Of a stretch of DNA of 59,390 nt, positions 2,150 through 34,982 are shown one piece after another (the stretch's first letter is position 1; the number at the start of each line of letters is the position of its first letter). This stretch comes from Acidimicrobiia bacterium (GTDB lineage Bacteria > Actinomycetota > Acidimicrobiia > Spongiisociales > JAHEDJ01), in NCBI GenBank assembly GCA_029210695.1, contig JARGFH010000022.1:1-59390 (forward strand). Reading direction: 5' to 3'. Position numbers and translations under genes: made by a program. The notes under the pieces are model-generated. The model saw only the letters and a program-made list of their open reading frames with translations. It was not told the origin of the DNA and ran no database searches.

Positions 2150-3183
2150 CACAGAAAGGCAACATCGTCCGTTGGCTGGCCACCCTCGTTACCCTGACGT
2201 TGCTGGTCGCAGCATGCGCCGGCGACGCCGCCACAACGACCACCGAGGCGGCACCGGCCGACACGACTGCTGCAGCGGCCGAACCGGTTGCCGTATCGCT
2301 GCGGCTTCCTTGGTTCCCCAGCGCCCAGTTTGCAGGAGACTACGTGGCGCTCGAAAAGGGCTTCTTCGCCGAAGAGGGCCTCGACGTCACCATCAATCCG
2401 GGCGGATTCGACATCAACAGCATCACGCTGGTTGCTGCCGGAAGCGACACGTTCGGGTTGCACGACACCAACTCGCTGCTCTTCGCCAATGCCGAAGGCA
2501 TCCCGCTGATCACGGTGGCCACCTTCCTACAGAAGCATCCAGGCGCGATCATGGCCCTCGCCGACTCCGGATTTGAATCACTCGCCGATCTCGAAGGCAA
2601 GACCATCGGCTTTCAGGAAGGTGGACCCTGGCAGCTGACACAGGCGATGCTGGTCAAGAACGGCATCGACCCCGATTCCCTCAGACAGGTGGCAGTCGGA
2701 TTCGACCTAACGCCGTTGTTCGAGGGCACCATCGATCTCATCACCGTTTTCTCGACTAACGAGCCGATGCTGGCCGAACAACAGGGCTTCGAAACCACCG
2801 TCTTCGTCCCCTACGACTACGGGGTCGAAACGTCGGCGAATGCGCTGTTCACCACCAAGGAGTATCGGGACGCCAATCCGGACACGGTGTGTGCGATGGT
2901 ACGGGCCATCGCCCGCGGTTGGGAATACGCACTCGACAACCCGGAGGAAGCCGCCGACATTGTCGTCGCCGTCGATCCCGACAACCTCGACCGTGACAAA
3001 GAACTCAAGAGCCTGGCCGCCATCGAAGACGACGTGCGGACCCCCGATGCCATAGCCAACGGCATCGGTTCGATGACCCTGGATCGATGGCAGACCGCCG
3101 AGGACGTCCTGGGGGAGTACGGTGGGTTGACCGTGGATATCGACTTGACCTCGGTCTACACGGACGCCTGCTTCTCCTCTTGA
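2146..3183 (+). CDS. ABC transporter substrate-binding lipoprotein, NMT1/THI5 family
   Basis: Lipobox VAAC; L.WFPSAQFAG.YVA.EKGFFAEEGLDV; ATGA overlap with the regulator. Confidence 0.88.
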   Translation: MTQKGNIVRWLATLVTLTLLVAACAGDAATTTTEAAPADTTAAAAEPVAVSLRLPWFPSAQFAGDYVALEKGFFAEEGLDVTINPGGFDINSITLVAAGSDTFGLHDTNSLLFANAEGIPLITVATFLQKHPGAIMALADSGFESLADLEGKTIGFQEGGPWQLTQAMLVKNGIDPDSLRQVAVGFDLTPLFEGTIDLITVFSTNEPMLAEQQGFETTVFVPYDYGVETSANALFTTKEYRDANPDTVCAMVRAIARGWEYALDNPEEAADIVVAVDPDNLDRDKELKSLAAIEDDVRTPDAIANGIGSMTLDRWQTAEDVLGEYGGLTVDIDLTSVYTDACFSS

Positions 3184-3192
3184 TTGCCAGGC

Positions 3193-3227
3193 AGGAGGGT
3201 GGCCCGGTTCATACGGACCACCCTCCT
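3193..3227 (+). terminator. Intergenic stem-loop after the binding-protein gene
   Basis: AGGAGGGTGG ... CCACCCTCCT, 10-bp inverted repeat. Confidence 0.55.
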
Positions 3228-3253
3228 CCCCGCTGGTGAAAGGACCCACCCTC

Positions 3254-4027
3254 ATGGTCTTCGACAAGAACGCCAACACCCCAGGCAAGGTGCAGTACCA
3301 CCTCCGGGTCGGCCCCGGCGACGTCGCCGAATACGTCCTCCTCCCCGGCGATCCAGACCGTGTGCTCCGCATCGCCGGCCACATCGACGACCCCAAAGAG
3401 ATAGCGCACCACCGCGAATACCGGACCGTCACGGGCAGCTACCACGGCATACCGGTCACCAGCACCTCCACCGGGATCGGATGTCCATCCGCGGCGATCG
3501 CCGTCGAAGAACTGGCCAACGTCGGTGCGACCCATTTCGTCCGGGTTGGCAGCAGCGCAGCGCTGGCTCCCGGAATCCGCACCGGCGATCTCCTCATCAA
3601 CACCGGATCGATGCGCCTCGACGGCACCAGCGCCGCCTACGTCGACCCCGGCTTTCCGGCCGTTGCCGATCACTACCTCGTGCATGCGCTCATCGAGGCA
3701 GCATCGGAGTTGAGCGACCAACGCGGGTTCGACTACCACGTGGGCATCAACGCGTCGAGCGACGCTTTCTATACCGAAACTCCCGCATTCATCGAGAACC
3801 TGATGCGACACAACATCACCAACATCGAGATGGAGAGTTCCGCGATCTTCACGGTTGCGCACCTACGCGGGCTAGCGGCTGCGATGGTGTGCGCGGTGTC
3901 GTACAACTACACGGACCCCGACGACATCGACTACGAGACCGCCAACCATCGCCTCATTCAAGGATGGGACAACGCCATCGATGTCGCCCTCGAGGGTATC
4001 CGAAGATACCAGGCTGTGAGAACCTAA
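3254..4027 (+). CDS. udp: Nucleoside (uridine) phosphorylase family
   Basis: LLPGDPDR, HREY, STGIGCPSAAIAVEEL, RVG, NIEMESSA motifs. Confidence 0.85.
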   Translation: MVFDKNANTPGKVQYHLRVGPGDVAEYVLLPGDPDRVLRIAGHIDDPKEIAHHREYRTVTGSYHGIPVTSTSTGIGCPSAAIAVEELANVGATHFVRVGSSAALAPGIRTGDLLINTGSMRLDGTSAAYVDPGFPAVADHYLVHALIEAASELSDQRGFDYHVGINASSDAFYTETPAFIENLMRHNITNIEMESSAIFTVAHLRGLAAAMVCAVSYNYTDPDDIDYETANHRLIQGWDNAIDVALEGIRRYQAVRT

Positions 4028-4029
4028 CC

Positions 4030-4845
4030 GTGGCAGAGCAGGGCATCGAGCGAGGAATCGCTTTCGATGGGATCGGGATGCGCTTCGGCGGAGAGCAGCC
4101 CGTCCGTGCGCTGCGCGACATCACGCTCCAAATCCCCGACGGCGAGTTCACCGCCATCGTTGGTCCGTCAGGATGTGGCAAGTCGACCCTCCTCCGGATA
4201 GTGGCGGGCCTGCTCGAACCCACCGAAGGCACGGTGTCGGTGCGCGGCAAAACCCCCGATCAAGCACGGCGAGATGTCGAATTTGGTTTCGTGTTTCAGA
4301 GCCCAGTGCTGTTTCCGTGGTTGCGAGCACTCGGCAACGTGCTGCTTCCCGATCGGATTCTCGGCGACCGCAACCCTGCCCACGGCTCAAACATGGACGA
4401 GCTGGCTCGGCGCCTTCTCGCCCAGCTGGGACTGGCGGGATTCGAGGGTCACTACCCCGGGCAGATGTCGGGAGGGATGAGACAACGAGTAGCCCTCGCC
4501 CGCGCATTGATCTACCAACCATCGACCTTGCTCATGGACGAACCGTTCGGCGCACTCGACGAGTTCACCCGAGACCGCCTCAATCTCCAGCTTGTCGAGG
4601 TTTGGAGCAACTCGGGGACAACGGTGTTGTTCGTGACCCACAGCATCCAAGAGGCCATCTACCTCGCCGATCGGGTGGTTGTGCTCAGCGCTCGACCTGG
4701 CCGGATCAGCAGGATCGCGGCCGTGCCTTTCGGTCGACCCAGGCCCCTCGAAATCCGGTACGAACCCGACTTCGCCTCCCTTACCGGCGAGCTGCGCAGC
4801 CTCCTCGAGGAAGACCCTGACACAACCGAAGGGACGGTCACATGA
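4030..4845 (+). CDS. ABC transporter ATP-binding protein (NitT/TauT type)
   Basis: GPSGCGKST, MSGGMRQRVALARAL, LMDEPF, VTH. Confidence 0.93.
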   Translation: MAEQGIERGIAFDGIGMRFGGEQPVRALRDITLQIPDGEFTAIVGPSGCGKSTLLRIVAGLLEPTEGTVSVRGKTPDQARRDVEFGFVFQSPVLFPWLRALGNVLLPDRILGDRNPAHGSNMDELARRLLAQLGLAGFEGHYPGQMSGGMRQRVALARALIYQPSTLLMDEPFGALDEFTRDRLNLQLVEVWSNSGTTVLFVTHSIQEAIYLADRVVVLSARPGRISRIAAVPFGRPRPLEIRYEPDFASLTGELRSLLEEDPDTTEGTVT

Positions 4846-5636
4846 CCACAGAGTCGCCGATGCGGAAGGGACGCCCGAAGTGGCGCACGGTGATACCGGC
4901 GGCCCTATTGTTCTTTGCAGCGCTCGTCGTCTGGGAGGTCATCGTCCGGGCATTCGAAGTGCCCGCCTACATCCTTCCCAGCCCCACCGAGATCCTGACA
5001 GAGCTGATCGCCGAGGGCCGCTCCCTCACCACCGATCTTGGCTGGACCATGCTCGAGGCGGTACTGGGATTCCTCGCAGGCAGCTCGGCGGCCTTCCTGG
5101 CCGCCGTCATCTTCGTGCATGTGCCGATCGTGGAACGAGCTGCCTTCCCGTGGGCGATCGTGCTGCAGACGGTCCCAATCGTGGCGATCGCTCCACTACT
5201 AACAATCTGGTTCGGATTCACCCTGGTCCCGAAGGTTGTGATTGCCGCCATCATCTGCTTCTTCCCCGTGCTGGTCAACACGACCCGAGGTCTTCGCTCG
5301 GTGAGCGGCGAAGCCCTCGAACTGATGAGCGTTCTCTCAGCTCGGCGTTCCTCTATCTTCTGGCGACTGCGCATACCTAGTTCGTTGCCCTACGTATTCG
5401 CCGGGTTGCGGGTTGCCGCCACCTTGTCGGTCATAGGAGCAATTGTTGCCGAGTTCACCGGATCGGATCGCGGAATCGGATACGTCATTGTGCAAGCTGC
5501 CTATCGGATTGACACCCGACTGATGTTCGCCGGGATCGCCCTATCATCCCTCGGCGGGATCCTTTTCTTCAACATCATCGGCTGGTTGGAGAAGGCCGCG
5601 ATTCGCTGGCCTGACGCCCGGATGGAAGACCAATAG
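4842..5636 (+). CDS. ABC transporter permease (NitT/TauT type)
   Basis: LPSP.EI, hydrophobic helices, FFPVLVNT.RG, GAIVAEF. Confidence 0.92.
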   Translation: MTTESPMRKGRPKWRTVIPAALLFFAALVVWEVIVRAFEVPAYILPSPTEILTELIAEGRSLTTDLGWTMLEAVLGFLAGSSAAFLAAVIFVHVPIVERAAFPWAIVLQTVPIVAIAPLLTIWFGFTLVPKVVIAAIICFFPVLVNTTRGLRSVSGEALELMSVLSARRSSIFWRLRIPSSLPYVFAGLRVAATLSVIGAIVAEFTGSDRGIGYVIVQAAYRIDTRLMFAGIALSSLGGILFFNIIGWLEKAAIRWPDARMEDQ

Positions 5637-5757
5637 AAGAGGAGCGAGACCGTACAGCGGCGGATACCCGGACCGGACGCGGTCCCGTCGAGACAACCGT
5701 CCGATTGACCACCGGTAGAAGACCAGCAGAACCGATACAACGAAGCAACGAGGCCCC

Positions 5758-5777
5758 GGTCAGCTACCGCTCTGACC
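5758..5777 (-). terminator. Hairpin downstream of the tRNA fragment
   Basis: GGTCAG-N8-CTGACC inverted repeat immediately 3' of the minus-strand tRNA remnant. Confidence 0.45.
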
Positions 5778-5788
5778 AGAGCCCATTC

Positions 5789-5836
5789 GTAGCCGGAACA
5801 GGATTTGAACCTCCGACCTTCGGGTTATGAGCCCGA
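5789..5836 (-). tRNA. 3' half of an initiator-type tRNA-Met(CAT); att-site remnant, not a full gene
   Basis: Reverse complement TCGGGCTCATAACCCGAAGGTCGGAGGTTCAAATCCTGTTCCGGCTAC has the anticodon arm and T-arm; no 5' half or D-arm is adjacent. Confidence 0.85.
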
Positions 5837-5939
5837 GTCCGGGGTGTTCGCTGACCTGCGGAAACGCGCGAAGCGCCTGCTCAGACGGCGCTTCTGGTCC
5901 GGGTCATTCCGCGTTCTTGACCGTCCCATCCCACCCTCT

Positions 5940-5961
5940 CGCGCGATGGACGCGCGATGGA
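5940..5961 (+). repeat. CGCGCGATGGA x2; candidate integrase arm-type sites
   Basis: Perfect 11-bp tandem repeat ~100 bp inside the att core. Confidence 0.55.
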
Positions 5962-6011
5962 GAACGTGCCCCGCCGAGATGTACACCCCACGCGAGCAGG
6001 TACCGCGATCA

Positions 6012-7790
6012 TCACGATCGCCTGATGTGCAGGATGTGGGCTTGCGGATGATCATTGGCCAGCTGACTGGCCAATGCGTGCTCGTAGGTAGTGACGATTA
6101 TCTGCTCCGGCGCATGCGCAGCAGATGCGTCAGCGAGATACCCCGCCACGGTGCGTCGCAGTTTGGGGTCGAGGTGTTCAAGGGGTTCGTCGAACCAGAC
6201 GAATGGCAATGTGGTGGAGCACTCAATTACCAGCAGGTGCGTGATGAGCCGCGCCCAAATCCGTTCGCCGCCACTGAGGCTGTCCCATCCGAGCTCTTCG
6301 CCAGCGACGAAACGGGTAACAGCGCCATCCGGTCGAAGCTGAAGCCCGCCGTCGTTGAACAGCTGCTTCCAGCGCCACTGCACTTCCCTGGCAATCGGCT
6401 CGATCCTTGTCGACGTGAGCTGTTCGGTAGCGGTTCGAAGAGCAGCAGCCGCGGCAGCCGCGACACCTTCGCGACGAAACGCCTCGGTGAGTCGGCGTTG
6501 AGCCTGCTGTACTTCGTTGTCCGCGTCGAGTTGCTGCCTGAGGGCGTCGATCTGGGAACGAAGCCCACCCAGGGTCGCGTTGTGGCTGTTGAGGGCATCG
6601 AGCGCTTCGCGGTACACCCGCTCGGCGAACTCGGGGTCTTGGTGCTCGTCGGACTGCGGGCCCTGCGGCTGGCTCAGGACTTCGAGCCGCGCCACAAGCG
6701 AGTTGATCCGTTCGAGTTGCGCAGTCGCCGTGGCTGCGGCACGGGACAGCTCGGATTCTTCGCGGTGTGCTCTTTCAGCGAGCTCGTAATGGGCTGCGCG
6801 GGCAACGGCAACGGCGTCTCGATCGATCGGTCTCAGACATGTGGGGCAGGTGGTGTGGTCACCCTCGAGGAGCTCAAGTCCGTGCTCGGCGGCGATGGTC
6901 GCGGCTCGGGCGTGATCCAGTTTCCCAATGGTTTCTTCCGTTCGGTCCGTGATGGTGACGCGGGCCTGCGCAAGCATCTCCTGGAGGACGACTCGATCAG
7001 CATCTGACGGCACCTGTTCGTCTGCAAGGACTTCCCTGACCTCCTTGGCGATGTCAACAAGCGCATCCTGAAACATGTTGGCCACGGTGCGGAATCGGGC
7101 CCACTCGGCCGCTAGTTGACGAGCCTGATCAGCGACAGCCAGCCCTGCTTCGAGGCGGGTACCGGTAGCTTCGGCGCCGACGACATCGCCTTGGAGCCTC
7201 GCGATGTCGGCCTCCACGGTTGCTCTATCGGCAACGCGCTGCTTGTCACTCGCCCGGAGTCCCTTGGTTGCCTTTTGAGCGTCCTTGAGTGCCCCGTCGG
7301 CCAGCTCCGATGCTCGGAGTAGGTTCGTGACCCCGAAGGCCTGGTGAAGATGCGTCTCGATATCGAGGGCTCGGTCTGAGGCGACATGTCCACCGCCGAG
7401 CATGACAGAAAGCCGTGCAGCCGTCGGCAGGTCAATGCCGAACTCGCTTTCGACAAGATCCTGGGCAGCTCCTGGATCCAGTTCTTCCTCGTTGAGGCGA
7501 TAGGTAGATGTTGGTGAGCCCCGGCGTTTGATGTTTCGTTCAATCGCGAGGGTCGATCCGTCGCGCAATGTCATCGAAATCTCGACGGTGGCCTGTTCGG
7601 TGCCGGCTCGGATACAGTCCTTCGGAGAGATGCTCCGGGCGTGTTCGCCGAATAGGGCCCACGCGAGGGCGTGCACGAGCGACGTCTTTCCAACGCCGTT
7701 GGGGGCTACCACGAAGGTTGTCCCCGGCGCGAAGTCGACGTCCAGGGAGTCGTACGACCTCCAGTTTCGAAGGCGAACATGGCGAATCAT
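6012..7790 (-). CDS. SMC/Rad50/SbcC-like ABC ATPase
   Basis: Walker A APNGVGKTS, coiled coil with CPTC hook, LSGGE signature, Walker B WFDEP. Confidence 0.9.
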   Translation of the reverse strand: MIRHVRLRNWRSYDSLDVDFAPGTTFVVAPNGVGKTSLVHALAWALFGEHARSISPKDCIRAGTEQATVEISMTLRDGSTLAIERNIKRRGSPTSTYRLNEEELDPGAAQDLVESEFGIDLPTAARLSVMLGGGHVASDRALDIETHLHQAFGVTNLLRASELADGALKDAQKATKGLRASDKQRVADRATVEADIARLQGDVVGAEATGTRLEAGLAVADQARQLAAEWARFRTVANMFQDALVDIAKEVREVLADEQVPSDADRVVLQEMLAQARVTITDRTEETIGKLDHARAATIAAEHGLELLEGDHTTCPTCLRPIDRDAVAVARAAHYELAERAHREESELSRAAATATAQLERINSLVARLEVLSQPQGPQSDEHQDPEFAERVYREALDALNSHNATLGGLRSQIDALRQQLDADNEVQQAQRRLTEAFRREGVAAAAAAALRTATEQLTSTRIEPIAREVQWRWKQLFNDGGLQLRPDGAVTRFVAGEELGWDSLSGGERIWARLITHLLVIECSTTLPFVWFDEPLEHLDPKLRRTVAGYLADASAAHAPEQIIVTTYEHALASQLANDHPQAHILHIRRS

Positions 7791-8692
7791 GCTGCGAGCG
7801 CTCCAACGATCTCACCGAGTCGTTCTGGCAGATCTTCGGGGCTCGCGACGCCTGATTCGAGATCGGAGATCAACCTCGCCAGCCCTGTCGTCTCCGTGTC
7901 ACCGAGATCTGACCAGGCCATTCGCTTCTCGGTGATTTGAGCGCGAGCGCCCTGGGCAGCGACAGCAAGCACAGACGACCTCACGATCGCAGGAACATCG
8001 ATTGCATCACTGCCGACGTCGAATGACCGGATCAAGTCAGCGTCCAGAGCTGTGAATGAAGGGGCGAGTTCGTTGATGAAGGCGGCGCACGCTACGGCAG
8101 CCGCCGCGATGGGCCGTGCGATCCGGGGTGGTCGGGACTGGCCGCTGGGGACCTCGAAAGCGGCTTCGAGGTCGGAACGCTCGATGATCACGCCGACCAT
8201 GGGCGGTTTGGTCATGAGCAGTATTCCGGCGGTCTCGCCGAACGCGCCGAATATGGCGGCCGCCGCTGAAATACGTCGAGGGGTCAGTTCATTGAGCTCG
8301 GAGTCGGCCGGCTCAAGCATGCCGCGAAGCCGGTGACCCCGGCAGGTGATGATCAGGTCACTGTCAATTCCGGACGCGCGGGCTGCGATGTCCGGGACGA
8401 CGTCGCAGCCCTCGTTGAGTTCATCGTGAAGGTCCGCCTCAAGCCGGCCGACGACGTCAGCGATGTCGCCGGCTGGCATCCGCGCCGGTTCGTGAGCGAG
8501 GAGTGCAGCGATCGACGGGCGTGAGGCTTGGGGATCGATTCCTCGCCCGGCTTTCAGGGACGCGATGAGCCGCTCCGCTTCTGCCCGCTGGGTGGCGGTG
8601 AGATGGTCGAGGGATGGCTCGTCGCCGCCGTGCTCGAGGAAATCGAGGTATGCGTCGAGGACCTCGTCGACCGGATCGAAGTCGTGCGTCAT
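7787..8692 (-). CDS. Hypothetical protein coupled between the sigma-like and SMC genes
   Basis: 301 aa with ATGA overlaps at both ends; acidic N-terminal helix DEVLDAYLDFLE. Confidence 0.8.
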   Translation of the reverse strand: MTHDFDPVDEVLDAYLDFLEHGGDEPSLDHLTATQRAEAERLIASLKAGRGIDPQASRPSIAALLAHEPARMPAGDIADVVGRLEADLHDELNEGCDVVPDIAARASGIDSDLIITCRGHRLRGMLEPADSELNELTPRRISAAAAIFGAFGETAGILLMTKPPMVGVIIERSDLEAAFEVPSGQSRPPRIARPIAAAAVACAAFINELAPSFTALDADLIRSFDVGSDAIDVPAIVRSSVLAVAAQGARAQITEKRMAWSDLGDTETTGLARLISDLESGVASPEDLPERLGEIVGALAA

Positions 8693-9315
8693 CGGTTGCC
8701 TCCTTGTGTGAATCGTTGGAATCTCGGATGGTCATACAGCCGTTGGGCGATGCGCCGGTAGACGTAGGTCACGCCCGGTGGCGAGAGGTCGAACTCGTTG
8801 GCGAGCGAGTCCCTGCTTCGCTCGCCGGTGTGTAGCCCGAGGAAGATGGTTCGGTCTCGATCGTCAAGAAGCTCATGCGCGAGCTTGATGAGTTCGAGCT
8901 GTTGAGCGGTGGCAAAGAACTGCTCTTCGAGGTCCGGCCCTGTCGCCGCAATCCCTTCAAAGAGGGAACGACCCAGTGTTCCGTCCGCGCCCTCTGGTCC
9001 GGGATTATCGCCGGACACCATCGTGAGCTTGGGCCGGTGCCTTGTGGCGCGCAGCCACGCCTGCCCGTCGCGTAGGGCACCCTTGGTCTTGTTCGTCGCG
9101 ATTCCGAACGCCACCGCCTCCCAGCTCTCAGTGACCTGCTCCGGCGGTTTAGTGAGCAGCGCCTTGAGGCACTCGCTGAGGATGTCCTCAGTGCTGTGCC
9201 CGCCCTGAATCTGGAGTTCAGCAACCGGATCGCCAATCACTCGGGCGACGCCGGATCCAGTTCGTCGGCGCCGTGGCGCGTTCCGACGAATCACCCTGTG
9301 GATCTGTGCCCACAT
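8689..9315 (-). CDS. Sigma-70/ECF-like factor
   Basis: Region-2-like TEDILSEC.KAL...AFGIATNKTKGALR; region-4-like LDDRDRTIF...LANEFDLSPPGV; the frame is open upstream to 9390, so the start is uncertain. Confidence 0.65.
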   Translation of the reverse strand: MWAQIHRVIRRNAPRRRRTGSGVARVIGDPVAELQIQGGHSTEDILSECLKALLTKPPEQVTESWEAVAFGIATNKTKGALRDGQAWLRATRHRPKLTMVSGDNPGPEGADGTLGRSLFEGIAATGPDLEEQFFATAQQLELIKLAHELLDDRDRTIFLGLHTGERSRDSLANEFDLSPPGVTYVYRRIAQRLYDHPRFQRFTQGGNR

Positions 9316-9427
9316 GACGTCGACGATCAGCTCAAGGCGCTCCAGGTCGTCTTCGAGCGGATGCCGCGGTAGTGGGTGAGGGCGGTGGATTCATCATCTG
9401 CTGGTCTAACTGTCGCGACCCGACTCG

Positions 9428-9459
9428 AAAAAGAAAGCGATTCGATCAACTTTCTTTTT
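9428..9459. promoter_or_regulatory. Inverted repeat in the divergent promoter region
   Basis: AAAAAGAAAG-N12-CTTTCTTTTT, perfect 10-bp arms. Confidence 0.6.
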
Positions 9460-9528
9460 GGTGTCTGGCCGCGACGTACACAGTGAGCCGCCCGCTCAAG
9501 AGAACAGACGACGAGAAGGAGTATCGCC

Positions 9529-9783
9529 ATGAACGACACCACCGTGTCAGAGATGAACCATGAGGTGCGATTTAGCATCGACGGCCAGCCATACAGCACC
9601 TGTGACCGCCGCCAGCCCGCGGCGGACTTGCTCCGGCTCGCTGGCCTCGACCCGAGCCTGTTCGATCTCGGAGAGGTGCGGGGCTCCAGCCCCGGAACCC
9701 GCCGTTACTCAGACGACGAGATCGTCAAGATCCGGCCGAGCGCTCGTTTCGTGTCCATCCGTGAACGCGCCGACGTGGCCTAG
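9529..9783 (+). CDS. Ubiquitin-like (multiubiquitin-type beta-grasp) protein
   Basis: RFSIDGQPY...LLRLAGLDP..FDL...DDEIVKIR...RFVSI; RBS AAGGAG; first gene before E2 and E1. Confidence 0.75.
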   Translation: MNDTTVSEMNHEVRFSIDGQPYSTCDRRQPAADLLRLAGLDPSLFDLGEVRGSSPGTRRYSDDEIVKIRPSARFVSIRERADVA

Positions 9784-10137
9784 ATGATGAGCGACGGGGT
9801 CGACGACTTCATCGAACGGGTGACCAGATTGGGTCTCGACCCCGTGGCCGATGGCCAACTGGTCATCTACAAGATCGAACCCGTCGACGGAGCCCACATC
9901 GGTGCCACGGTCCTCACGGGTGTCGCAATCGAGGAGCTCTCCAGGTGGCCGCTGGTACCTCCCCATTGGATCCACCTCCCAGCACCCGTCGAGTTCGCCC
10001 ACACCAACAGCCGGCCCTCTCCTCGTTCGGGATGGACCATGCATAGCCGTCAGATCACACGCTGGGGTCAAGACCCCGACCCCGGCGTAGGTTGGGTCGG
10101 CCACGTTCGCGGGGTCATCGGGGCAGCCACAGGATGA
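9784..10137 (+). CDS. Prokaryotic E2-like protein lacking cysteine
   Basis: WPLVPPHWIHL and GWTMHSR motifs; located between Ubl and E1. Confidence 0.65.
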   Translation: MMSDGVDDFIERVTRLGLDPVADGQLVIYKIEPVDGAHIGATVLTGVAIEELSRWPLVPPHWIHLPAPVEFAHTNSRPSPRSGWTMHSRQITRWGQDPDPGVGWVGHVRGVIGAATG

Positions 10138-11642
10138 CCCGCGCCACCTCCGTCGCCTTGACCGGAGCGACCCACGCCCGTCTATGCGAACACTTGCTCC
10201 GTGACGATGGCCAGGAGGACCTCTGCCTAGCTACCTACCGAGCCTCTTCAGGCCGCAACCGTGCGACGGCGATCCTGCGAGATGTCATCCTCCCTCAGCC
10301 CGGCGAACGAGACGTTCACGGCAACGTCACCTTCACCGGCGAGTACGTGCTGCGAGCAACCGAGATCGCAGCACGTACTCAAGGTGGCATCGTCGTGTTA
10401 CACAGCCACCCTGGCGCCACCCGATGGCAGTCGATGAGCGGCCCCGACCGCGACGCCGAAAGCTCGTACGCCAACCTGGCCCGTGAACTCACCGGACTGC
10501 CCCTCGTCGGAATGACCCTCGCCGGCCGCGACCGGACATGGTCTGCACGCCACTGGGACACCGGCGTCGGACGAGACATCGCCGCCAGCCCCGCTCACAA
10601 CGTTCGGGTCATCGGTGCCACACTCGACATCTCATGGAATGACCGTGCCGTTCCCGCTCCTCGTACCACAGGACAGCACCGGAGGACCGTCAGTTGCTGG
10701 GGCGAAGAGGTGCAGGCGGATCTGGCACGTCGAAGGGTTCTGGTCGTAGGCGTTGGGAGTGTCGGCCTCGACGTTGCCGTTCGACTCGCCGCGTCCGGGC
10801 TGACCTCGATCACCGTTATGGATTTCGACATCGTGAAGGAACACAACCTCGACCGGCTGATCGGTGCGACGCGACGCGACGTAGCGCTCCGCCGCGCCAA
10901 GACTCACGTTGTGGGGCGGGAGGCACGCCGCAACTCCACCGCCGCGAACGCCCGAATTGAGATCTCGAACCTGAGCATCTGTGAACCCGAAGGCCTCGCG
11001 GTAGCACTCGACCACGACGTCATCTTTTGCTGCGTCGACCGGCCATGGCCTCGAGCCGTCCTCAACGGCATCGCCTACAGCGACCTCATCCCTGTGGTCG
11101 ATGGCGGCGTCGCCGTTGACACCATGCCAAGCGGAACACTTCGCAACGCGACCTGGCGATCCCACGTTGTCGCCCCAGGACGGCCGTGCCTCCTCTGCAA
11201 TCGACAACTCGACGCCGCCCAGGTCGCCCTCGACATGGACGGCCTGCTCGACGATCCTGACTACATCGCTGGTCGAGCCGGCCACCCGAATCAACCAGCC
11301 GGTCAGAACGTCGCCATGGTGTCGATTAACGCTGCGGCGAGCCTCTTGGCCCAGTACATCAGTCTCAGTGTCGGTCCCGCCGGCATGGGCGACCCTGGAC
11401 CACTCCAATACCTCCTGAGCACTCACGAGTTGCTGCACCTCGATCACCCGTCGAACCCGCACTGTCCCTACGAAGCAGCTGAAGCCGAAGGCAACAAACG
11501 CACGCCCCTCGTTGGAGCCCACTCCGCCGCCGACCATCTCCGCGCCAGCCACGGTTCTGACTTGCCTCTGAAAGTCAGAGCACTTCGCCTCGTCGACGAT
11601 CGTGTCGACTCGATCGAGCGTTGGCTCGATCGCCGCGCGTGA
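10134..11642 (+). CDS. JAB peptidase-ThiF/E1 adenylyltransferase fusion
   Basis: JAB: E(QED)...HSH...S..D; ThiF: GVGSVG, D.D...NLDR, CVD, PCLLC. Confidence 0.88.
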   Translation: MTRATSVALTGATHARLCEHLLRDDGQEDLCLATYRASSGRNRATAILRDVILPQPGERDVHGNVTFTGEYVLRATEIAARTQGGIVVLHSHPGATRWQSMSGPDRDAESSYANLARELTGLPLVGMTLAGRDRTWSARHWDTGVGRDIAASPAHNVRVIGATLDISWNDRAVPAPRTTGQHRRTVSCWGEEVQADLARRRVLVVGVGSVGLDVAVRLAASGLTSITVMDFDIVKEHNLDRLIGATRRDVALRRAKTHVVGREARRNSTAANARIEISNLSICEPEGLAVALDHDVIFCCVDRPWPRAVLNGIAYSDLIPVVDGGVAVDTMPSGTLRNATWRSHVVAPGRPCLLCNRQLDAAQVALDMDGLLDDPDYIAGRAGHPNQPAGQNVAMVSINAAASLLAQYISLSVGPAGMGDPGPLQYLLSTHELLHLDHPSNPHCPYEAAEAEGNKRTPLVGAHSAADHLRASHGSDLPLKVRALRLVDDRVDSIERWLDRRA

Positions 11643-11928
11643 TCCATCGCCGGAGATGAAGGGATTGGGGGTCTTCAGACAGGGTGGCTCGCGCCCGACT
11701 GACAGGCTTGGGTGACCTTCTGCTCGCATTGCGCGAGCCCGTTCAATCTCGAGCGCCTGACGCTCAGGTCGCGTCCATCGGCGCCGACCAGCCCGATAGC
11801 GCCCACCTGCCTGATCTGTCAGGCAGCTACCACAAGACTGACGACGATCGCGAGGCCTGCCAAGATGACTGTTGCGCGTTGCATTCGAGCCAACTCCCTC
11901 GGCTCACGATCCAACGAGAAGGACGAAC

Positions 11929-12744
11929 GTGAAGCTCTGCTACGTCGATGAGACCGGCACAGATGGCAAGAGCCCGGCCGTCGTGATGGTCGGGATCATC
12001 GCCGACGCAGCTCGCATTCACAGGACTCGATCCGAGTTCCGCGCGATCTACGAGCGTTTGGAAGGCCTGCCGGATGGGACGATTCGGGAGTTGAAGTCGA
12101 CCGAGCTCTATCGGGGGAAAAGGCGCTGGGATGGGGTCGATGGACAACTCCGGCACCAGGCGATCGGCGACTTCTGCGATTGGCTCTGCGAAAGGAAACA
12201 TGACATCGCATTGGCTGCGCTGGACTACACCCGATTCGAGGGATCACCCCTCCACGATCAAGGCCTAGACCGTTGGGGCGCCGCTGCGCTTCACGTCGCC
12301 CTCCAAGTTCAGCGAGCGCACCAGGGCAAGAAGAAGAACAAGGGCAGCACTTTTCTCGTCTTTGATGAGAACAAGCAGAAGACGGACGCCCTAGCTCAGC
12401 TGCTCTACGAACCGCCAGCGTGGTCCGACACCTACTACGACCGTTCTGCGAAGAACGAGGCCCTTGACCAAATCATTGATACGGCTTTCTATGCCCAATC
12501 ACATCACGTAGGACTCGTGCAGGTCGCCGACCTTTTCGCGTTCCTGTTCAAGAGATACTCAGAGCTCTTGGACTATGGCCACGATGAAGACTTCCAGGGC
12601 GAGCGTGACAAGGTATCCGGATGGGTCAAAACCTTGAGCAGCAGACTGCTCCCGGCCGCACACCGCTGGCCGAAGAAACCGAAGAACGACCCTGCAAGAT
12701 GGTACGTCGACCTGGCTCCTGCAAGTCTCCGCGCTATCGGGTAG
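11929..12744 (+). CDS. DUF3800 domain protein (RNase H-like fold)
   Basis: YVDETG at the N-terminus, ELK, VFDE, S....LVQVADL. Confidence 0.85.
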   Translation: MKLCYVDETGTDGKSPAVVMVGIIADAARIHRTRSEFRAIYERLEGLPDGTIRELKSTELYRGKRRWDGVDGQLRHQAIGDFCDWLCERKHDIALAALDYTRFEGSPLHDQGLDRWGAAALHVALQVQRAHQGKKKNKGSTFLVFDENKQKTDALAQLLYEPPAWSDTYYDRSAKNEALDQIIDTAFYAQSHHVGLVQVADLFAFLFKRYSELLDYGHDEDFQGERDKVSGWVKTLSSRLLPAAHRWPKKPKNDPARWYVDLAPASLRAIG

Positions 12745-12765
12745 CTCGGGCCAGTTGTATTGGCA

Positions 12766-13482
12766 CTACTCCGGAGTCTCTGCAACTCCCAACGCCAACC
12801 TCGATTCCGCACGATCGAGTAGCCGCATGAGCAGGTCAGCGAGGAACACGACCTCGGAAGCCTCGATCGGGTCGGTGTAGTCGACTTGGCGATGGCTCGG
12901 CGGGTTCTTGAACGTACCAATAGCTCCAGCGAACAACTCCATAACACCAACCCGTTCCCCCGGATCCAGATTGGGGTCGCTGAGTGGACCACCATCGTTC
13001 TTGAAGGCTTCGCGCATCAACTTCACGCCGATGAGCGCCGAGTCCGCGTCGGCCAGCTCCCGGACCCGGATCTCCACCTCGCGCATGGCAGCGAAGGCTG
13101 CGAGCTCGTACTCCCCCAGAAGGAACTGTGATCGAACTTTTGTCAACAGGTGGTGCAAGTCCTCGTGGAGCCGCTCTGCTGCGTTGACACGACGGAGACC
13201 TTCTTCGAGAACGGACTGACCGAGTCGCGTGACGAATACTGCCTCGCTCCCCGACTGACCCGGAGTGCCGCGGGCAATCAACCCCTTGGCGACGAGCCAG
13301 TTGACCGCTTCCACAAGGCAACGCTGGGCTGGCACGCTGACGCCACGTTGTGCAGCACCCTTGACAAAGTTGCCCGAGTGCCACTCGCCAGTCTCCTCTA
13401 GATGCGCCAACACCACCAGACCCAACCGATCGATCGACAAGGAACACAGCTGATCGTCCGCGAGGGTCGTAAGTTCGCTCAT
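12766..13482 (-). CDS. TIGR02391 (Ymh) family protein
   Basis: A.REVEIRVR, GVKLMREAF, LFAGAIG.FKNP.SHR. Confidence 0.85.
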   Translation of the reverse strand: MSELTTLADDQLCSLSIDRLGLVVLAHLEETGEWHSGNFVKGAAQRGVSVPAQRCLVEAVNWLVAKGLIARGTPGQSGSEAVFVTRLGQSVLEEGLRRVNAAERLHEDLHHLLTKVRSQFLLGEYELAAFAAMREVEIRVRELADADSALIGVKLMREAFKNDGGPLSDPNLDPGERVGVMELFAGAIGTFKNPPSHRQVDYTDPIEASEVVFLADLLMRLLDRAESRLALGVAETPE

Positions 13483-13573
13483 CCAGCCCCAAGCTACCTG
13501 CCCCGGAAGGGTGATTGCGCGGCGATTGCCGGGCTATCCGATCAATGACCTTCATCCTGCGGTGTCACTCAGT

Positions 13574-13618
13574 TGACAGGGCTGCTGACACTCTGCTGAC
13601 AGGGTCGGCGCGGAATCT
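13574..13618 (+). promoter_or_regulatory. ICE box with -10 hexamer upstream of the transfer operon
   Basis: TGACAGGG-CTGC-TGACA-CTCTGC-TGACAGGGTC-N6-GAATCT. Confidence 0.75.
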
Positions 13619-13650
13619 AGCTCTCGTGAAGTGCACGAGAGGAGCGGCCT

Positions 13651-14400
13651 GTGGGGCCGAGACCCCCAGCGAGAGCGGCGGACACTGAACTGATTCGTCG
13701 GCTTGATGCGGAGTGGCGGATCCTGTCCCACTCGCGCTGGTTGCGAGATCGACTTGGGGCATGGGAAATCGACGATGACCGGCTGTCGTTCGATGACGGT
13801 GACCAGCTCGTCGCCGCCGCTCAGAGGCGAGATGCTCAGGGTTGGGCCGAGAGGGATGAGATCCTGGCCGCTCTTCTCGTACGAGCCACCGACGACGGAC
13901 TGGCCAAACGAGTCGCGCTCCAGGTGGTACTTCCGGGTTTGAAGAGCCTTATCAACGGAATCCGCGGCTGGGATGTCGAAGAACGAGCTGCCCGGGTCGT
14001 GGCGACGGCGTTGGACGCCATCTCCTGGTGCGCTACCGAGCCGGCAGGAACGCCACCGAGTTTTCGGATCTACGTGAACACGAGGCGCCGAGTCCTGCGC
14101 GCAGCGGTCCGTACTCGGTCGGAACCGGTGGTGTTCGTCGACGACTACAGGCACCTCGATGTTGGCGAGGAGAGCACCGACGGCCCGTCCGAAGAGCAGG
14201 AGGTTGAGCAACTCGTCGAGTGGGTTCGACAGCGGGGGCGGGTTCGGGAGGATGCGGCTCGCCTTGTAGTGATGACCCGGGTCGCCGGGGTTTCGGTCGA
14301 TGAACTGGCCGCCGCTGACAACGTCGATCCCCAGACGCTGCGACAGCGGCGACTGCGTGCCGAGTGTCGCGTTCGCCAAGCCCTGACCCTGGCTCGATGA
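13651..14400 (+). CDS. Sigma-70-like DNA-binding protein heading the transfer operon
   Basis: RVALQVVLPGL; C-terminal region-4-like HTH (TRVAGVSVDELAA...TLRQRRLRAE). Confidence 0.65.
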   Translation: MGPRPPARAADTELIRRLDAEWRILSHSRWLRDRLGAWEIDDDRLSFDDGDQLVAAAQRRDAQGWAERDEILAALLVRATDDGLAKRVALQVVLPGLKSLINGIRGWDVEERAARVVATALDAISWCATEPAGTPPSFRIYVNTRRRVLRAAVRTRSEPVVFVDDYRHLDVGEESTDGPSEEQEVEQLVEWVRQRGRVREDAARLVVMTRVAGVSVDELAAADNVDPQTLRQRRLRAECRVRQALTLAR

Positions 14401-14505
14401 CCACATCAAGACCGAGAGTGTGTCGCGTCCCGCTCCTTCGCCCGCCCCTTATGCCAGCGATAGGCCATGAAGTCCGACCCCGACCACCGACCGAATGGAG
14501 GAAAC

Positions 14506-14826
14506 ATGCAAGCTCTTTCACAGCAACCCGACCGGAAACTCGGACGAAGCGTCACCCCGCCGGACGGTGACGCCCGCGCGCTGACCGAGGTCGAGCTGGA
14601 CGGTCAGATCCGAGCCGGCTGGGGCATCTGGTGTGATCTGCTCGACGATCTCCTGAGTACTGGCGGGATGCTGCCGTCCCGTGAACTGGCCGGCCGGGTG
14701 GTGGGCTTCTTCGAGGACGGCTACTGGCGAGCCGAGGACGCCCGAGTCGAGGCGTTGCGCCGTCAGATGGCTTCCCAACACATCCGACGACGCCGTGTGA
14801 CCGATCGGTCGAGAGGGATCCGATGA
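14506..14826 (+). CDS. Hypothetical protein
   Basis: RBS GGAGGA; ATGA coupling to the next gene; Arg-rich tail. Confidence 0.65.
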   Translation: MQALSQQPDRKLGRSVTPPDGDARALTEVELDGQIRAGWGIWCDLLDDLLSTGGMLPSRELAGRVVGFFEDGYWRAEDARVEALRRQMASQHIRRRRVTDRSRGIR

Positions 14827-15752
14827 CTACCCAAGGTAACGAGGTGTACACCGGAGACCGGCACTCTCGGCGAAGCTTCACCCCGGCGCTGACCATCCGA
14901 ATCCTGTATTTCGCCCTATGGCTGCTAGTGCTGTCGGGTCCGGTCGCAGCCCTCCTCGTTGCAGCGCAGGTGTCGTCACTCAGCAAGCGAATCGACGTCG
15001 TGGATGGGCGGGCTGAAGCGGAGCCGGCTCCCGACACCGCTGGAGCTGAGGGTTTCGCCGAGCTCTTCATCGCCGCCTACCTCGGTGCCGGAGAGAATTC
15101 AACCGATTCGCTCGGTCCCTTCCTGGACAACGTTTCGTTGGATGGAGTTGAGAGCGGATCGTGGTCGGCGACGAGGACGACGAGCCTCGGCGCCTCGGAG
15201 GTCTCCCCTGGCTACTACGCGGTGAGGGTGGCTGCGGAGGTTGTTGGCGCCGGAAGCGATGCCGACGGGCAGCCCGTGTGGGTTCCGGCAGGCACCCGTT
15301 TCTACTCGGTTGGTGTGGCCGAGACGCCAACTGGGTGGGCAGTCACCGGCTTACCCACATTGATTCCGGCACCCGCCCGCGTCACTGTCCCGGACCTGCT
15401 GATTGATCGCCTTGACGGACTCGATGCGACACCAGGTCTGGAGGAGATGCTGTCGCGCTTCCTGGCTGCCTTCCTAGCCGGGGATGGCGAGCTGGCCCGG
15501 TACACCTCCCCGTCCTCGCCCATCGTTCCGATCCAGCCAGCGCCATTTTTGAGTGTCGAGATCCTCGAGGCCGGGATGGCCGAAGCGTCGGGCGGCCTGT
15601 CCGAGGTGGCGGTGGTTGTTCGGGCGACTGATATCGCCGGCCGGGCCCAGATTCTCGAATACGCCCTCGTAGTCGAACAGCGGGACGGGCGGTGGGAGGT
15701 ATCTGAGCTCTTGCCGGCACCACCCCTGGCAACGCTCCAAGAAGGCAGTTGA
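14823..15752 (+). CDS. Conjugal transfer protein, TcpC/VirB8-like
   Basis: N-terminal TM, GFAELFIAAYL, second domain RFLAAFL...LARY, RDGRWEV. Confidence 0.8.
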   Translation: MTTQGNEVYTGDRHSRRSFTPALTIRILYFALWLLVLSGPVAALLVAAQVSSLSKRIDVVDGRAEAEPAPDTAGAEGFAELFIAAYLGAGENSTDSLGPFLDNVSLDGVESGSWSATRTTSLGASEVSPGYYAVRVAAEVVGAGSDADGQPVWVPAGTRFYSVGVAETPTGWAVTGLPTLIPAPARVTVPDLLIDRLDGLDATPGLEEMLSRFLAAFLAGDGELARYTSPSSPIVPIQPAPFLSVEILEAGMAEASGGLSEVAVVVRATDIAGRAQILEYALVVEQRDGRWEVSELLPAPPLATLQEGS

Positions 15753-15778
15753 ACGAATCCAGTGAGAGGAAGGAACAA

Positions 15779-16042
15779 ATGATTGAGACAGCAGAGACCG
15801 TGGTTGGGAACTTGACCAATCTGGCGATCGGGGCGGCGGTGTTGGTCGCTATCGGCATGATCTTGTGGTCGTGGCTGGTGAAGCGGACCGTGTCGGCGGT
15901 GATCGGGGTGATCATCCTGGCCGCCATTGTCCTGTTCGCTATCAACGCCACCGACTGGCTACAGAACAAGGTGGCTGAGGACGTCGGCGCCCTCGCCCCG
16001 CCCGCTCACACAGTCGTCGTGACGATCGACGGGTCGCTGTAG
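15779..16042 (+). CDS. Small two-TM conjugation protein (TcpD/pilin-like)
   Basis: Two hydrophobic helices; lies between TcpC and TcpE. Confidence 0.6.
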   Translation: MIETAETVVGNLTNLAIGAAVLVAIGMILWSWLVKRTVSAVIGVIILAAIVLFAINATDWLQNKVAEDVGALAPPAHTVVVTIDGSL

Positions 16043-16474
16043 GTGGCGGCGATGGACTTCGACGTCTATCACTCGTACACCCAGGCTCTCCGTCACCCGG
16101 TGATTATCGGCCACGTTGCCGGTTGGCGGCTCCCGTGGGCTCTTTCGGCTTCGCAGTTGGGGGCGGTCGCTGGGATGAGCGGGCTGCTGTTGGCGACCCG
16201 ACCTGTGTGGGCGCACCTCGGGGCGGTCGGGAACCTGGCCGTGTTCACGTTGTTGATTGCCGGGTCGGGGTGGGCGGTGAGGCATTGGAGGATCGAGGGT
16301 CGCTCCCCGTTCCTGGTCGCTGCCGGACTGGCCATGGTGATTCTGTCGCCTGGGTGCAGACACGGAGTCCGCAATGGGACGCCCGTCACGCTGGCACGAC
16401 CGACCCGCGGCAACCAAGTCGGCGTCGTGATGGTGCCCGCCCCGTTGGGTCTGGGGAGGCGGGCGGATGGGTAA
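16043..16474 (+). CDS. TcpE/VirB3-like protein
   Basis: YT.A.RHP.IIG...GWRLPW, TM pair, RIEGRSP; precedes VirB4. Confidence 0.7.
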   Translation: MAAMDFDVYHSYTQALRHPVIIGHVAGWRLPWALSASQLGAVAGMSGLLLATRPVWAHLGAVGNLAVFTLLIAGSGWAVRHWRIEGRSPFLVAAGLAMVILSPGCRHGVRNGTPVTLARPTRGNQVGVVMVPAPLGLGRRADG

Positions 16475-21648: not shown

Positions 21649-21661
21649 AAGGAACAACCAC

Positions 21662-24101: not shown

Positions 24102-24272
24102 CGGGATGCACGGTCCGATGAACGACGGCTCGAGGCGTGCCACCGCGGCCCGCGAAATGGCATCGAGTAGTACCCCGTCCGGTACAAGTTCGGTAGAAGC
24201 CGGCCAGGAATCGTGGCCCAGCGACACTAAGGTTCGTTGCGATGGCACGTCACAGGCTCAAGCGTCGATCGT

Positions 24273-34946: not shown

Positions 34947-34982
34947 TCGGACCCTCCAAAACGGCTCGCCGTGAGAGCCCGG

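Follow-up and report, generated by a model that had tools for sequence, protein, structure and literature searches.

A Bub-like conjugation core beside a candidate regulator made up of sigma-like, 301-residue, and Rad50-like proteins in an Acidimicrobiia bacterium

What does a Rad50-like ATPase do beside a ubiquitin-like conjugation operon, and do the two belong to one system? This question is raised by positions 6012–11642 of contig JARGFH010000022.1 (assembly GCA_029210695.1) from an Acidimicrobiia bacterium, the whole analyzed stretch of which, 59,390 nucleotides long, is called the window below. Two translationally coupled three-gene operons diverge here, back to back across a spacer of 131–213 bp between their open reading frames (ORFs). 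The minus-strand operon, hereafter the trio, encodes a divergent sigma-70/extracytoplasmic function (ECF)-like protein (8689–9397, with a main ORF of 208 aa at 8689–9315), a 301-aa protein of no named family (7787–8692), and a Rad50/SbcC-like ABC ATPase of 592 aa (6012–7790), and the junctions among 6012–7790, 7787–8692, and 8689–9315 are 4-bp ATGA overlaps. The plus-strand operon, hereafter the core, encodes a single-domain ubiquitin-like protein (Ubl) of 84 aa ending in ADVA (9529–9783), a cysteine-less BubB-like protein of 117 aa with an E2/UBC fold (9784–10137), and a 502-aa fusion of a JAB/JAMM peptidase and an E1-like adenylyltransferase (JAB-E1, 10134–11642). The E2-like start at 9784 abuts the Ubl stop, and the JAB-E1 start codon at 10134 shares the tetranucleotide ATGA with the E2-like stop codon. 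The two tightly coupled, diverging three-gene operons described in the first-pass annotation were hence confirmed by the ORF coordinates and overlaps. The analysis suggests that a Bub-like core is accompanied here by a candidate regulator that is new and unusual in its mechanism. It is likely that the six genes constitute one functional unit, and the chances appear evenly balanced that they form a two-promoter system in which the Bub-like core is controlled by its own sigma-factor module.

All six genes were found together by tblastn in four of four independent, sequence-verified loci, which are the window, L001, L003, and L004. The profile scan of GTDB genomes gave at least three loci (L001, L002, and L003), of which L001 and L002 were counted as one because they are 99.99% identical, while L004 is a Mycobacterium avium plasmid locus obtained by the plasmid tblastn. 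The operons are divergent in the window and L001, and are co-directional in L003 and L004 in the order Ubl-E2-JAB/E1-sigma-X-ATPase, where X denotes the middle protein of the trio. Protein identity among these loci is only 31–64%, and the trio of L004 has diverged furthest from that of the window, its ATPase being 31% identical and its sigma 39% identical over 64 aa. Its middle protein of 336 aa resembles the 301-aa protein only in the N-terminal ~60–80 residues, which are the sole part kept (blastp, 5e-13). The word-indexed search yielded 19 sigma matches and 36 E2-like matches, and three further contigs (13524, 16346, and 23570) probably carry the sigma and/or 301-aa gene together with an E2-like gene, as judged by pairing contigs of equal size, one pair also having adjacent locus tags. 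Such conservation bears on the simplest alternative, in which two unrelated systems lie side by side in defense islands or mobile elements and the repeat between them is an ordinary operator or a product of chance. It is true that defense genes cluster, that the window adjoins genes of an integrative and conjugative element (ICE), that L003 lies among genes for GmrSD, an OLD-like ATPase, and HEPN-DUF499, and that the core is able to exist alone. However, the neighborhood is kept in all four loci despite rearrangement and despite the low identity, and the same motif precedes both operons at every one of them, while related cores lacking the trio do not have it. The side-by-side explanation is considered highly improbable.

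This shared motif was found in the spacer, which contains an inverted repeat with arms of 26 nt at 9412–9437 and 9450–9475 that are 85% complementary and separated by 12 nt. The perfect 10-bp inverted repeat noted earlier is indeed present as the inner part of these arms (AAAAAGAAAG / CTTTCTTTTT). Each arm is an exact copy of the bipartite motif CTTTC-N15-CGCGAC, of which the left one (9412–9437, minus strand) faces the sigma operon and the right one (9450–9475, plus strand) faces the Ubl operon, 53 nt before the Ubl ATG. No other exact copy is present in the 59-kb window. The exact motif of L003 occurs only at 7056–7081 and 9268–9293, both on the plus strand, the ATG codons of Ubl and sigma being located at 7129 and 9306, respectively. 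L001 has an exact copy before sigma (7462–7487) and a copy with one mismatch before Ubl (7425–7450), and L004 has the variants TTTTC-N15-GTCGAC before Ubl and CTTTA-N15-GTCGAC before sigma. The motif exceeds chance expectation, since it is exact only at the two window sites and recurs before homologous operons elsewhere. It lies on the coding strand directly 5′ of both operons in the window, L001, and L003, and its copies are inverted in the divergent loci and direct, ~2.2–2.4 kb apart, in the co-directional L003 and L004. This position, this strand, and this change from inverted to direct copies with gene order do not depend on how the motif was derived, and they argue for a pair of promoters, or at least of sites specific to each operon, and against a palindromic operator. 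Interpretation of the repeat as such an operator or as a terminator was also set aside as the principal one, since the L003 and L004 copies are direct, each 5′ of its operon, and the repeat is located between two 5′ ends. The distance from the end of the −10-like hexamer to the sigma ATG is 14 nt in the window (ATG 9397), 12 nt in L001, 12 nt in L003, and 14 nt in L004, which fits near-leaderless sigma transcripts. A degenerate form of the motif, YTTTM-N15-SKCGAC, was matched exactly twice in each of L001, L003, and L004 against shuffle means of 0.16, 0.14, and 0.07, and in the window it was matched at both sites and at one stray site (12096–12121) against a shuffle mean of 0.45, these statistics being indicative only because the motif was derived from the tested sequences. 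The degenerate motif was not matched in L005–L008, which carry a related core without the trio. The scans detected no sigma-70-type promoter-like site in 5600–12200, no terminator-like site in the spacer, and no Rfam family above threshold in 5600–12000. As for the stray match, it lies on the minus strand, antisense inside a DUF3800 gene, and is probably due to chance.

Whether the core depends on the trio was examined with plasmid records. The JAB-E1 protein gave 54 such records at E ≤ 1e-10, of which ten actinobacterial ones showed 50–60% identity and 44 showed ~30%; the contexts of eight of the ten (H1, H2, H4, H5, H6, H7, H9, and H10) were examined, leaving aside H3, H8, and the 44 records at ~30%. 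Only one of these eight plasmid loci (L004) carries the sigma/X/ATPase trio. The core of L005 (Nocardioides) is accompanied by a sigma, a 222-aa hypothetical protein, and an ImmA/IrrE peptidase, and the other six (L006–L011) possess divergent genes for ImmA/IrrE and/or long HTH “HigA-like” proteins, some with a small partner; the 358-aa protein of L007, for example, matched HTH_3 and weakly matched Peptidase_M78. Since related cores thus carry other regulators, the core is autonomous and its flanking module exchangeable, with the trio filling the regulator slot. The first-pass annotation had proposed one six-gene system and had named independent occurrence of the two operons as the observation that would speak against it. 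Co-occurrence in four of four loci, two gene orders, and the shared motif support the proposal, while independent occurrence was found for the core, which stands without the trio in seven of the eight plasmid loci, but not for the trio, which stands without the core in none of the four. A dedicated sigma-based regulator or sensor is suggested because the motif precedes both operons, whereas it is missing from the cores without the trio, which have regulators of the HTH/ImmA type. As a separate observation, the three genes of L005 (3837–8476 of plasmid pCHL) precede the core co-directionally, and their sigma is more clearly of the ECF type (r2 5e-7, r4 5e-6), so that this arrangement looks like a hybrid of sigma-based and CapP-like control; erm and aminoglycoside phosphotransferase genes are found in this stretch as well.

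The strict co-occurrence in four of four loci would also be expected if the logic were reversed, such that the core primes or resets the sigma/301-aa/ATPase module by Ubl conjugation, as compared with Cap2/Cap3 acting on the CD-NTase in type II CBASS, and the output is a sigma-driven change in transcription. Priming by E1 and E2 is an established precedent (PMC11601596), and the presence of a JAB domain beside a Ubl that needs no fusion cleavage fits a deconjugating or resetting role. Against this, the core exists without the trio in seven of eight plasmid loci and must therefore have a function of its own, and the motif copies are located only before the two operons themselves except for the one stray, so that no wider regulon is visible in the DNA analyzed. 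This reversed order is judged decidedly unlikely.

The identity of the core was examined protein by protein. Iyer et al. (2006, PMC1779556) described an operon type 6e that consists of a polyUbl or solo Ubl, an inactive Cys-less E2/RWD-like protein, and a JAB-E1. In the account of Ye et al. (PMC11601596), 6E is renamed as Bub, and Type I (“6E.1”) is given as BubAB-BubCD-BubE. The fusion of JAB/JAMM to a homodimeric E1, a feature of Bub Type I (6E.1), is present in the JAB-E1 of the window, whose ORF is open from TTG 10092 (516 aa) and has its homologue-like start at ATG 10134. It matched ThiF of Pfam at 3.7e-23, and its best solved relative was Citrobacter BubCD (9ea4; phmmer 1.5e-20, residues 21–365), the alignment to which covers HSHPG and an Asp aligned to D104 of BubCD. 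The Glu of GQED, HSHP, the Asp, RPCxxC, and the Tyr of DDPxYI were all invariant among 8 aligned homologues. The invariant RPCxxC is located ~20 residues upstream of the DDPxYI Tyr, and the HMMER alignment to BubCD ends before the crossover loop.

The E2-like protein matched no family in Pfam, PADLOC, or NCBIfam, and its profile gave only chance aquaporin matches among PDB sequences. Its AlphaFold2 (AF2) model (pLDDT 94.6) adopts an E2/UBC fold, for which the best Foldseek match was Citrobacter BubB (9eae_C; prob 0.96, TM 0.58/0.54, E 0.075). BubB or E2 entries accounted for nine of the ten best chains, none of which reached E ≤ 0.001. An alignment of 32 sequences, composed of 30 of the 36 family matches plus the window and L003 proteins (the short P0044, P0070, P0071, P0073, P0074, and P0077 were left out), contains no conserved Cys, and PPHW, TN, and H87-S88-R89 are invariant. 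E51 is likewise invariant. The Ubl matched Multi_ubiq below the cut-off (E = 0.019) for the window protein and gave no match among PDB sequences; nine of the 11 aligned homologues matched Multi_ubiq, the best at 3.9e-12. Its C-terminus is Val-Ala in all 11 homologues, ending in Ala rather than Gly. Ubl is a single-domain protein in all four trio-linked loci, and two tandem β-grasp Ubl domains (145–155 aa) were observed in L006, L008, L010, and L011, which have no trio.

The core thus resembles Type I Bub in that JAB-E1 is nearest to BubCD, the Cys-less E2 fold is nearest to BubB, and the Ubl is of the Multi_ubiq type, and likewise in its location on mobile elements and in defense islands. Conjugation by Bub is described as proceeding through oxyesters on the E1 Tyr (Y370) and an E2 Ser, BubB residues S333/H335/D299 being named for the latter (PMC11601596), and the invariant Tyr after the adenylation domain and the invariant E2 Ser of the present family are compatible with such a mechanism. 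The same source reports that the BubAB fusion is cleaved after Gly and that the BubE/DUF6527 protease occurs in “all” Bub operons, although one 6E.1 operon in its Dataset EV1 has separate Ubl and E2 ids (PMC11601596). Unlike these, Ubl and the E2-like protein are encoded here by separate genes with a stop between them and without a BubAB-type fusion, and the Ubl ends in Val-Ala. BubE/DUF6527 was not found at E ≤ 0.01 among ORFs of at least 90 aa in 5640–12800 of the window, 4400–11650 of L001, or 6500–12800 of L003. The present family also has the invariant RPCxxC before the Tyr region, whereas the crossover loops of BubCD have no Cys, and its regulator is of another kind. Because of the separate Ubl and E2 genes, the Ala-ending Ubl, and the absence of DUF6527, the rightward operon is classified from its sequence as a Bub-like (“6E”) core of a distinct three-gene actinobacterial subtype, and not as a full Bub member. 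The first-pass annotation had named its genes Ubl, E2-like, and JAB-E1 and had likened it to Bil/Bub ubiquitination operons; the three assignments are supported by family and fold matches, with the correction that the E2-like protein has no cysteine, and the Bub side of the comparison held, the closest solved relatives being BubCD and BubB, while the Bil side did not.

The first gene of the trio was examined for sigma-factor domains. The protein matched TIGR02937 with E = 0.0012, below the 42.9-bit cut-off, and in an alignment of 19 sequences (17 of the 19 family matches plus the window ORF and the L003 protein; P0023 and P0041 were left out) Sigma70_r2 was matched in six and Sigma70_r4 in two, all below the cut-off. 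The homologues of L003, L004, and L005 matched r2 followed by r4, as expected of a sigma factor, at 1e-3 to 5e-7, and the family profile found PDB sigma factors (6pfj, 0.0012). The L004 homologue is labeled as a sigma-70 family sigma factor by PGAP, and the Atlas neighbors of the L001 protein are sigma-70 r2/r4 clusters with a score of 0.97. The earlier designation of an ECF-like sigma is hence kept in the form of a divergent sigma-70/ECF-like protein, with r2 and r4 recognized in homologues; it is called divergent because every sigma match is below the curated cut-offs. The 5′ end of the window gene requires care. Conserved sigma coding continues upstream of 9315 to about 9397, the main frame extending to a stop at 9391–9393, and the homologues begin with MTNPPAP...RHPLEDD. 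In the window, ATG ATG at 9397/9394 opens the frame MMNPPPSP..., which stops after 21 codons, and the main frame reads ...LPRHPLEDDLERLELIVDV, conserved ...RHPLEDD...IVDV, without a canonical start before ATG 9315. The window gene is therefore apparently frameshifted within its first ~11 codons, with its true 5′ end upstream of 9315, and this frameshift could be a real mutation that inactivates or attenuates the gene, or else an error of assembly.

The middle protein was of no known family in the first-pass annotation, which the sequence searches bore out: no match was obtained in Pfam, PADLOC, NCBIfam, PDB sequences (by profile), or the ESM Atlas, and nothing usable came from plasmids by tblastn. 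The word-indexed search, which scored the best 8000 candidates, gave 22 relatives including the window's own protein, while the full HMMER search over 1.84 billion representatives gave 303 at E ≤ 1e-3, 154 at E ≤ 1e-10, and 47 at E ≤ 1e-30; the family thus appears rare, yet bigger than the word search implied. In the AF2 model (pLDDT 74.9, pTM 0.51), a conserved N-terminal helix pair (~1–65) is followed by a disordered linker, an α/β core (~75–210), and a helical C-terminus (~233–300). Foldseek placed archaeal Hjc resolvases nearest to the α/β core (prob 1.0, E 4e-3, TM by target 0.45–0.55), and RecU and the SPARDA nuclease next (prob 0.9–1.0 and E 4e-3 to 4e-2 for Hjc/RecU). This indicates a degenerate PD-(D/E)xK-like fold, as far as the model can be relied upon. 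R121 and R123 are invariant in the family and, on our reading of the model, lie on strand 3 at the expected ExK position, and D101 and D174 are also invariant. Catalysis by the modeled core is doubtful because the invariant R121/R123 replace the expected ExK.

The architectures of the relatives were also compared, 36 architectural variants being scanned and inspected. Three of the 150 best relatives (P0081, P0170, and P0175) contain, further upstream in one polypeptide chain, a sequence resembling sigma region 4. In P0190, the N-terminal module is found alone and joined to an HExxH-bearing protein, the HExxH region of which was read by eye and is taken by us to be ImmA/IrrE-like, Pfam being negative; the module is fused to TPR repeats in P0168 and has an inserted HTH_31 in P0135, P0162, and P0218. 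The C-terminal half is homologous to proteins of 450–470 aa (hhalign prob 99%, E 3e-18), all five of which have an N-terminal HxxxCxxC motif that we take to be typical of zinc anti-sigma domains. An anti-sigma-like role of the 301-aa protein is plausible from these sequences because of the variant architectures, the overlap of its gene with that of the sigma at ATGA, and the selectively conserved N-terminus. The two halves appear shuffled among the relatives P0190, P0168, P0135, and P0186.

The last gene of the trio encodes an ATPase that matched SMC_N at 1.2e-20 across residues 1–576 and AAA_23 at 3e-16. Rad50 models of NCBIfam matched the N-terminal head only (3e-19, far below cut-offs), and Rad50 heads were the best solved relatives (3qf7, 6.6e-7). 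Walker A (GVGKTS), an LSGGE-like signature, Walker B (FDEPLEHLD), and the H-loop (TTYEH) are kept in four of four homologues, as is a CPxCxRP motif at mid-length in the four aligned homologues. The latter corresponds in the window to a zinc-hook-like CPTC (CxxC) at residues 315–318 (6837–6848, minus strand), and the L003 homologue has a weak Rad50_zn_hook match (E = 0.0075). Composition and position suggest a coiled coil of ~330 aa between the N- and C-terminal halves of the head. The identity as a Rad50-like ATPase was upheld by SMC_N, the Rad50 heads, and the CPxC motif, and the protein is assigned on its sequence to the Rad50/SbcC-like type with a split ABC head and a zinc-hook-like CxxC motif. 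The best PADLOC profiles were mad3 (2e-21) and LmuB (4e-17), which covered only the N-terminal ~100 aa (residues 2–99 for LmuB), and the likeness to LmuB, GajA, and PtuA is restricted to the head. The sigma and 301-aa proteins gave no match to the LmuA/LmuC profiles of PADLOC. The link to Lamassu/ABC-three-component (ABC-3C) systems that had been drawn from the ATPase was therefore abandoned as head-level likeness without an LmuA/LmuC match, and membership in Lamassu, ABC-3C, or MADS was rejected likewise, NCBIfam MAD3, the cut-off of which is 420 bits, giving E = 0.017. An ORF antisense to the ATPase gene (5805–7007, plus strand, 400 aa) has no family match and was treated as spurious.

The two last proteins of the trio may be combined differently if the locus is a composite, in which an SbcCD-, Lamassu-, or Gabija-like effector that targets DNA is made up of the 301-aa protein and the Rad50-like ATPase, and the sigma is a shared transcription factor, activator or repressor, without an anti-sigma/sensor relay. 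The PD-(D/E)xK fold of the central 301-aa domain suits such an effector, as Rad50/SbcC-type ATPases are usually partnered with a nuclease, but the canonical acidic/Lys catalytic positions are not conserved and R121 and R123 are invariant on strand 3. Similarly, the ATPase head resembles LmuB, GajA, and PtuA types in PADLOC and the effector-middle-SMC gene order resembles that of Lamassu (PMC12663957), but no LmuA, LmuC, SbcD, GajB, or other PADLOC partner was matched. The shared motif is compatible with any common regulator; however, the trio occupies the place of known regulators in related loci, and the part that is best conserved across distant loci is the N-terminal helix pair and not the core that resembles a nuclease. 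The composite locus is thus regarded as unlikely, though it is the foremost of the alternatives.

Control of the Bub-like core by its own sigma module would proceed as follows. In the resting state, the ECF-like sigma would be held by the 301-aa protein, the N-terminal helix pair of which would serve as the anti-sigma-like module. The Rad50-like ATPase, assisted by two parts of the 301-aa protein, its nuclease fold and its C-terminus, would sense DNA ends or aberrant or foreign DNA, and would spend ATP to release the sigma in the way that Lamassu releases its effector. The freed sigma would guide RNA polymerase to the two CTTTC-N15-CGCGAC sites, thereby amplifying its own operon and turning on Ubl, E2-like, and JAB-E1. 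The induced core would then conjugate Ubl to targets, probably via Tyr (E1) and Ser (E2) oxyesters as in Bub, and would do so with Ala instead of Gly at the Ubl C-terminus. The module would replace CapH+CapP, CapW, or CapK+CapS found beside other Bub operons. These steps differ in their probability. That the sigma reads both motifs is somewhat favored, whereas the assignment of the 301-aa protein as an anti-sigma falls slightly short of an even chance, and that of the ATPase as the DNA sensor that frees the sigma is tentative. The complete scheme is speculative and somewhat improbable; in it, a Rad50-family zinc-hook ATPase frees a dedicated sigma from a nuclease-fold anti-sigma (an “SMC-gated sigma”) as a new class of sigma signaling, and the output is a self-amplifying burst of cysteine-free, Ala-terminated Ubl conjugation on mobile elements of Actinomycetota.

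Several observations weigh against this scheme. All of the sigma-domain matches are below curated cut-offs, and the system copy in the window may be impaired because its sigma gene appears frameshifted at the 5′ end. The motif was defined from the same sequences in which it was evaluated, its degenerate form has the stray match in the window, and it is unlike the common GGAAC/CGT pattern of ECF sigma factors. Regarding the partner, no anti-sigma family of Pfam or NCBIfam was matched by the 301-aa protein, which has no HxxxCxxC. Pfam zf-HC2 was matched by just one of the five HxxxCxxC relatives, with a weak E of 0.15, and the N-terminus of the 301-aa protein shares no homology with those HxxxCxxC N-termini (hhalign prob 0.2%), by which homology to ZAS anti-sigma domains was ruled out. 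The P0081 junction looks frameshifted, so that its fusion may be an artefact, and the modeled nuclease fold may be that of an active effector and not of a sensor part. The genomic context is verified for four loci only. Lastly, phage protection by Bub operons is described as not demonstrated so far (PMC11601596).

The candidate module was compared with known regulators and sensors. A CapH/CapP-like arrangement is reported at 31% of Bub operons (PMC11601596), and CapW/BrxR and CapK+CapS are described as other known regulators (PMC13373217). The trio resembles these three in its position beside a Bub-type promoter and in the proposal that a DNA-related signal turns the adjacent operon on. However, they are repressors whose action is lifted by proteolysis, ligand binding, or phosphorylation, whereas a candidate positive sigma, an anti-sigma-like partner, and a Rad50-like ATPase are encoded here, and none of the three known pairs is at the locus. 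In Lamassu, a CxxC SMC-like LmuB and LmuC are reported to sense DNA ends, upon which the sequestered LmuA effector is released (PMC12663957). The LmuA-LmuC-LmuB order (PMC12663957) is similar to that of the trio, where the CxxC-type ATPase likewise closes an operon of three genes and is preceded by a small middle protein and an “output” protein, but the LmuB profiles match only the ~100 N-terminal residues, and the output would be a sigma rather than a nuclease, protease, or Sir2 effector. A dedicated sigma that is held by a partner and tied to an immune locus is known from DdvS/DdvA of Myxococcus xanthus (PMC11506125) and Csx30-RpoE of type III-E CRISPR (PMC9729208). DdvA is described as a transmembrane TPR-CHAT anti-sigma with a zinc three-helix bundle (PMC11506125), and Csx30 is reported to be released by an RNA-activated protease (PMC9729208); the present partner differs in being cytoplasmic, in its nuclease-like fold, in its pairing with an ABC ATPase, and in that the putatively regulated genes are the Ubl core. 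Rad50-Mre11/SbcC-SbcD share with the ATPase the ABC head motifs, a long coiled coil, and a CPxCxR-type hook, Rad50 heads being its best solved relatives, whereas its 592 aa are much shorter, its partner is PD-(D/E)xK-like and not an Mre11/SbcD phosphoesterase, and it is encoded with a sigma factor.

The combination is of interest since the Bub-type pathways are biochemically characterized, while their biological role and triggers are still to be established, and roughly half of the catalogued Bub operons have no known regulator. The locus provides a compact candidate for a positive switch, in which a sigma, two near-identical target sites, and a Rad50-like candidate sensor are found together. 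If the ATPase truly gates the sigma, SMC/Rad50-type DNA sensing would be linked to the initiation of transcription, a connection not previously described, and the module would represent a fourth, mechanistically different class of regulator for bacterial immune operons. The first-pass annotation knew of no description of this combination, and none was found in print: full-text literature searches, which did not cover Table S1 of the Bub preprint, returned no sigma/Rad50-like module beside a Ubl operon, and Dataset EV1 (file 8, the 544-operon Bub table of PMC11601596) contains 0 mentions of sigma, SMC, or ATPase. The locus also defines the actinobacterial three-gene Bub-like subtype, with BubE not found and an Ala-ending Ubl. 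Catalogues that are apparently limited to DUF6527-carrying operons probably miss this subtype, because the inspected rows of Dataset EV1 all carry a DUF6527 id.

The six-gene locus is located between an ABC transporter (2068–5636) and conjugation genes. ICE-like genes were observed at 14823–24101, 31845–37365, 45589–46683, and 56853–58175, which places the six-gene system at or just outside the left edge of this element. The set comprises TcpC/TcpE-like proteins, a VirB4-like AAA_10 ATPase, an M23/SLT hydrolase, a T4 coupling protein, a TrwC relaxase-helicase, an ArdC-primase fusion, and two tyrosine recombinases, and no tRNA was found in the window as an insertion site. A 22-nt word (CTGACACTCTGGTGAAAGGGTT-like, 86–100% identity) occurs four times: once near the start of the conjugation block (13585–13606), as a tandem pair before the ArdC-primase gene (35365–35386 and 35388–35409), and once ~165 nt before an integrase gene (56668–56689). 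It could be a regulatory site or represent repeats at the element boundary. The conjugative element also contains, at 24237–31690 on the plus strand, genes for a 1350-aa Eco57I-type methylase-domain protein and then a 1136-aa PLD-nuclease/SNF2-helicase, a pair that looks like restriction- or DISARM/BREX-like cargo. At 37413–38489 on the minus strand, 26 kb away from the locus and inside the element, a 358-aa fusion of HTH_3 and Peptidase_M78 (ImmA/IrrE) is encoded; it is of the same type as the regulators beside related Bub-like cores and probably serves the element's own control. Directly after the JAB-E1 gene, 11872–13482 encodes a DUF3800 protein (plus strand) and a Hypoth_Ymh/TIGR02391-type protein (minus strand), and a TIGR02391 family protein is also present near the related core in the Mycobacterium abscessus plasmid locus L006. 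The L003 locus is flanked on one side by a CHAT protease gene with an M48-like neighbor (3301–6662) and on the other (12778–20439) by genes for GmrSD, an OLD-family ATPase-TOPRIM protein, and HEPN_Swt1-DUF499, which together form a dense defense island.

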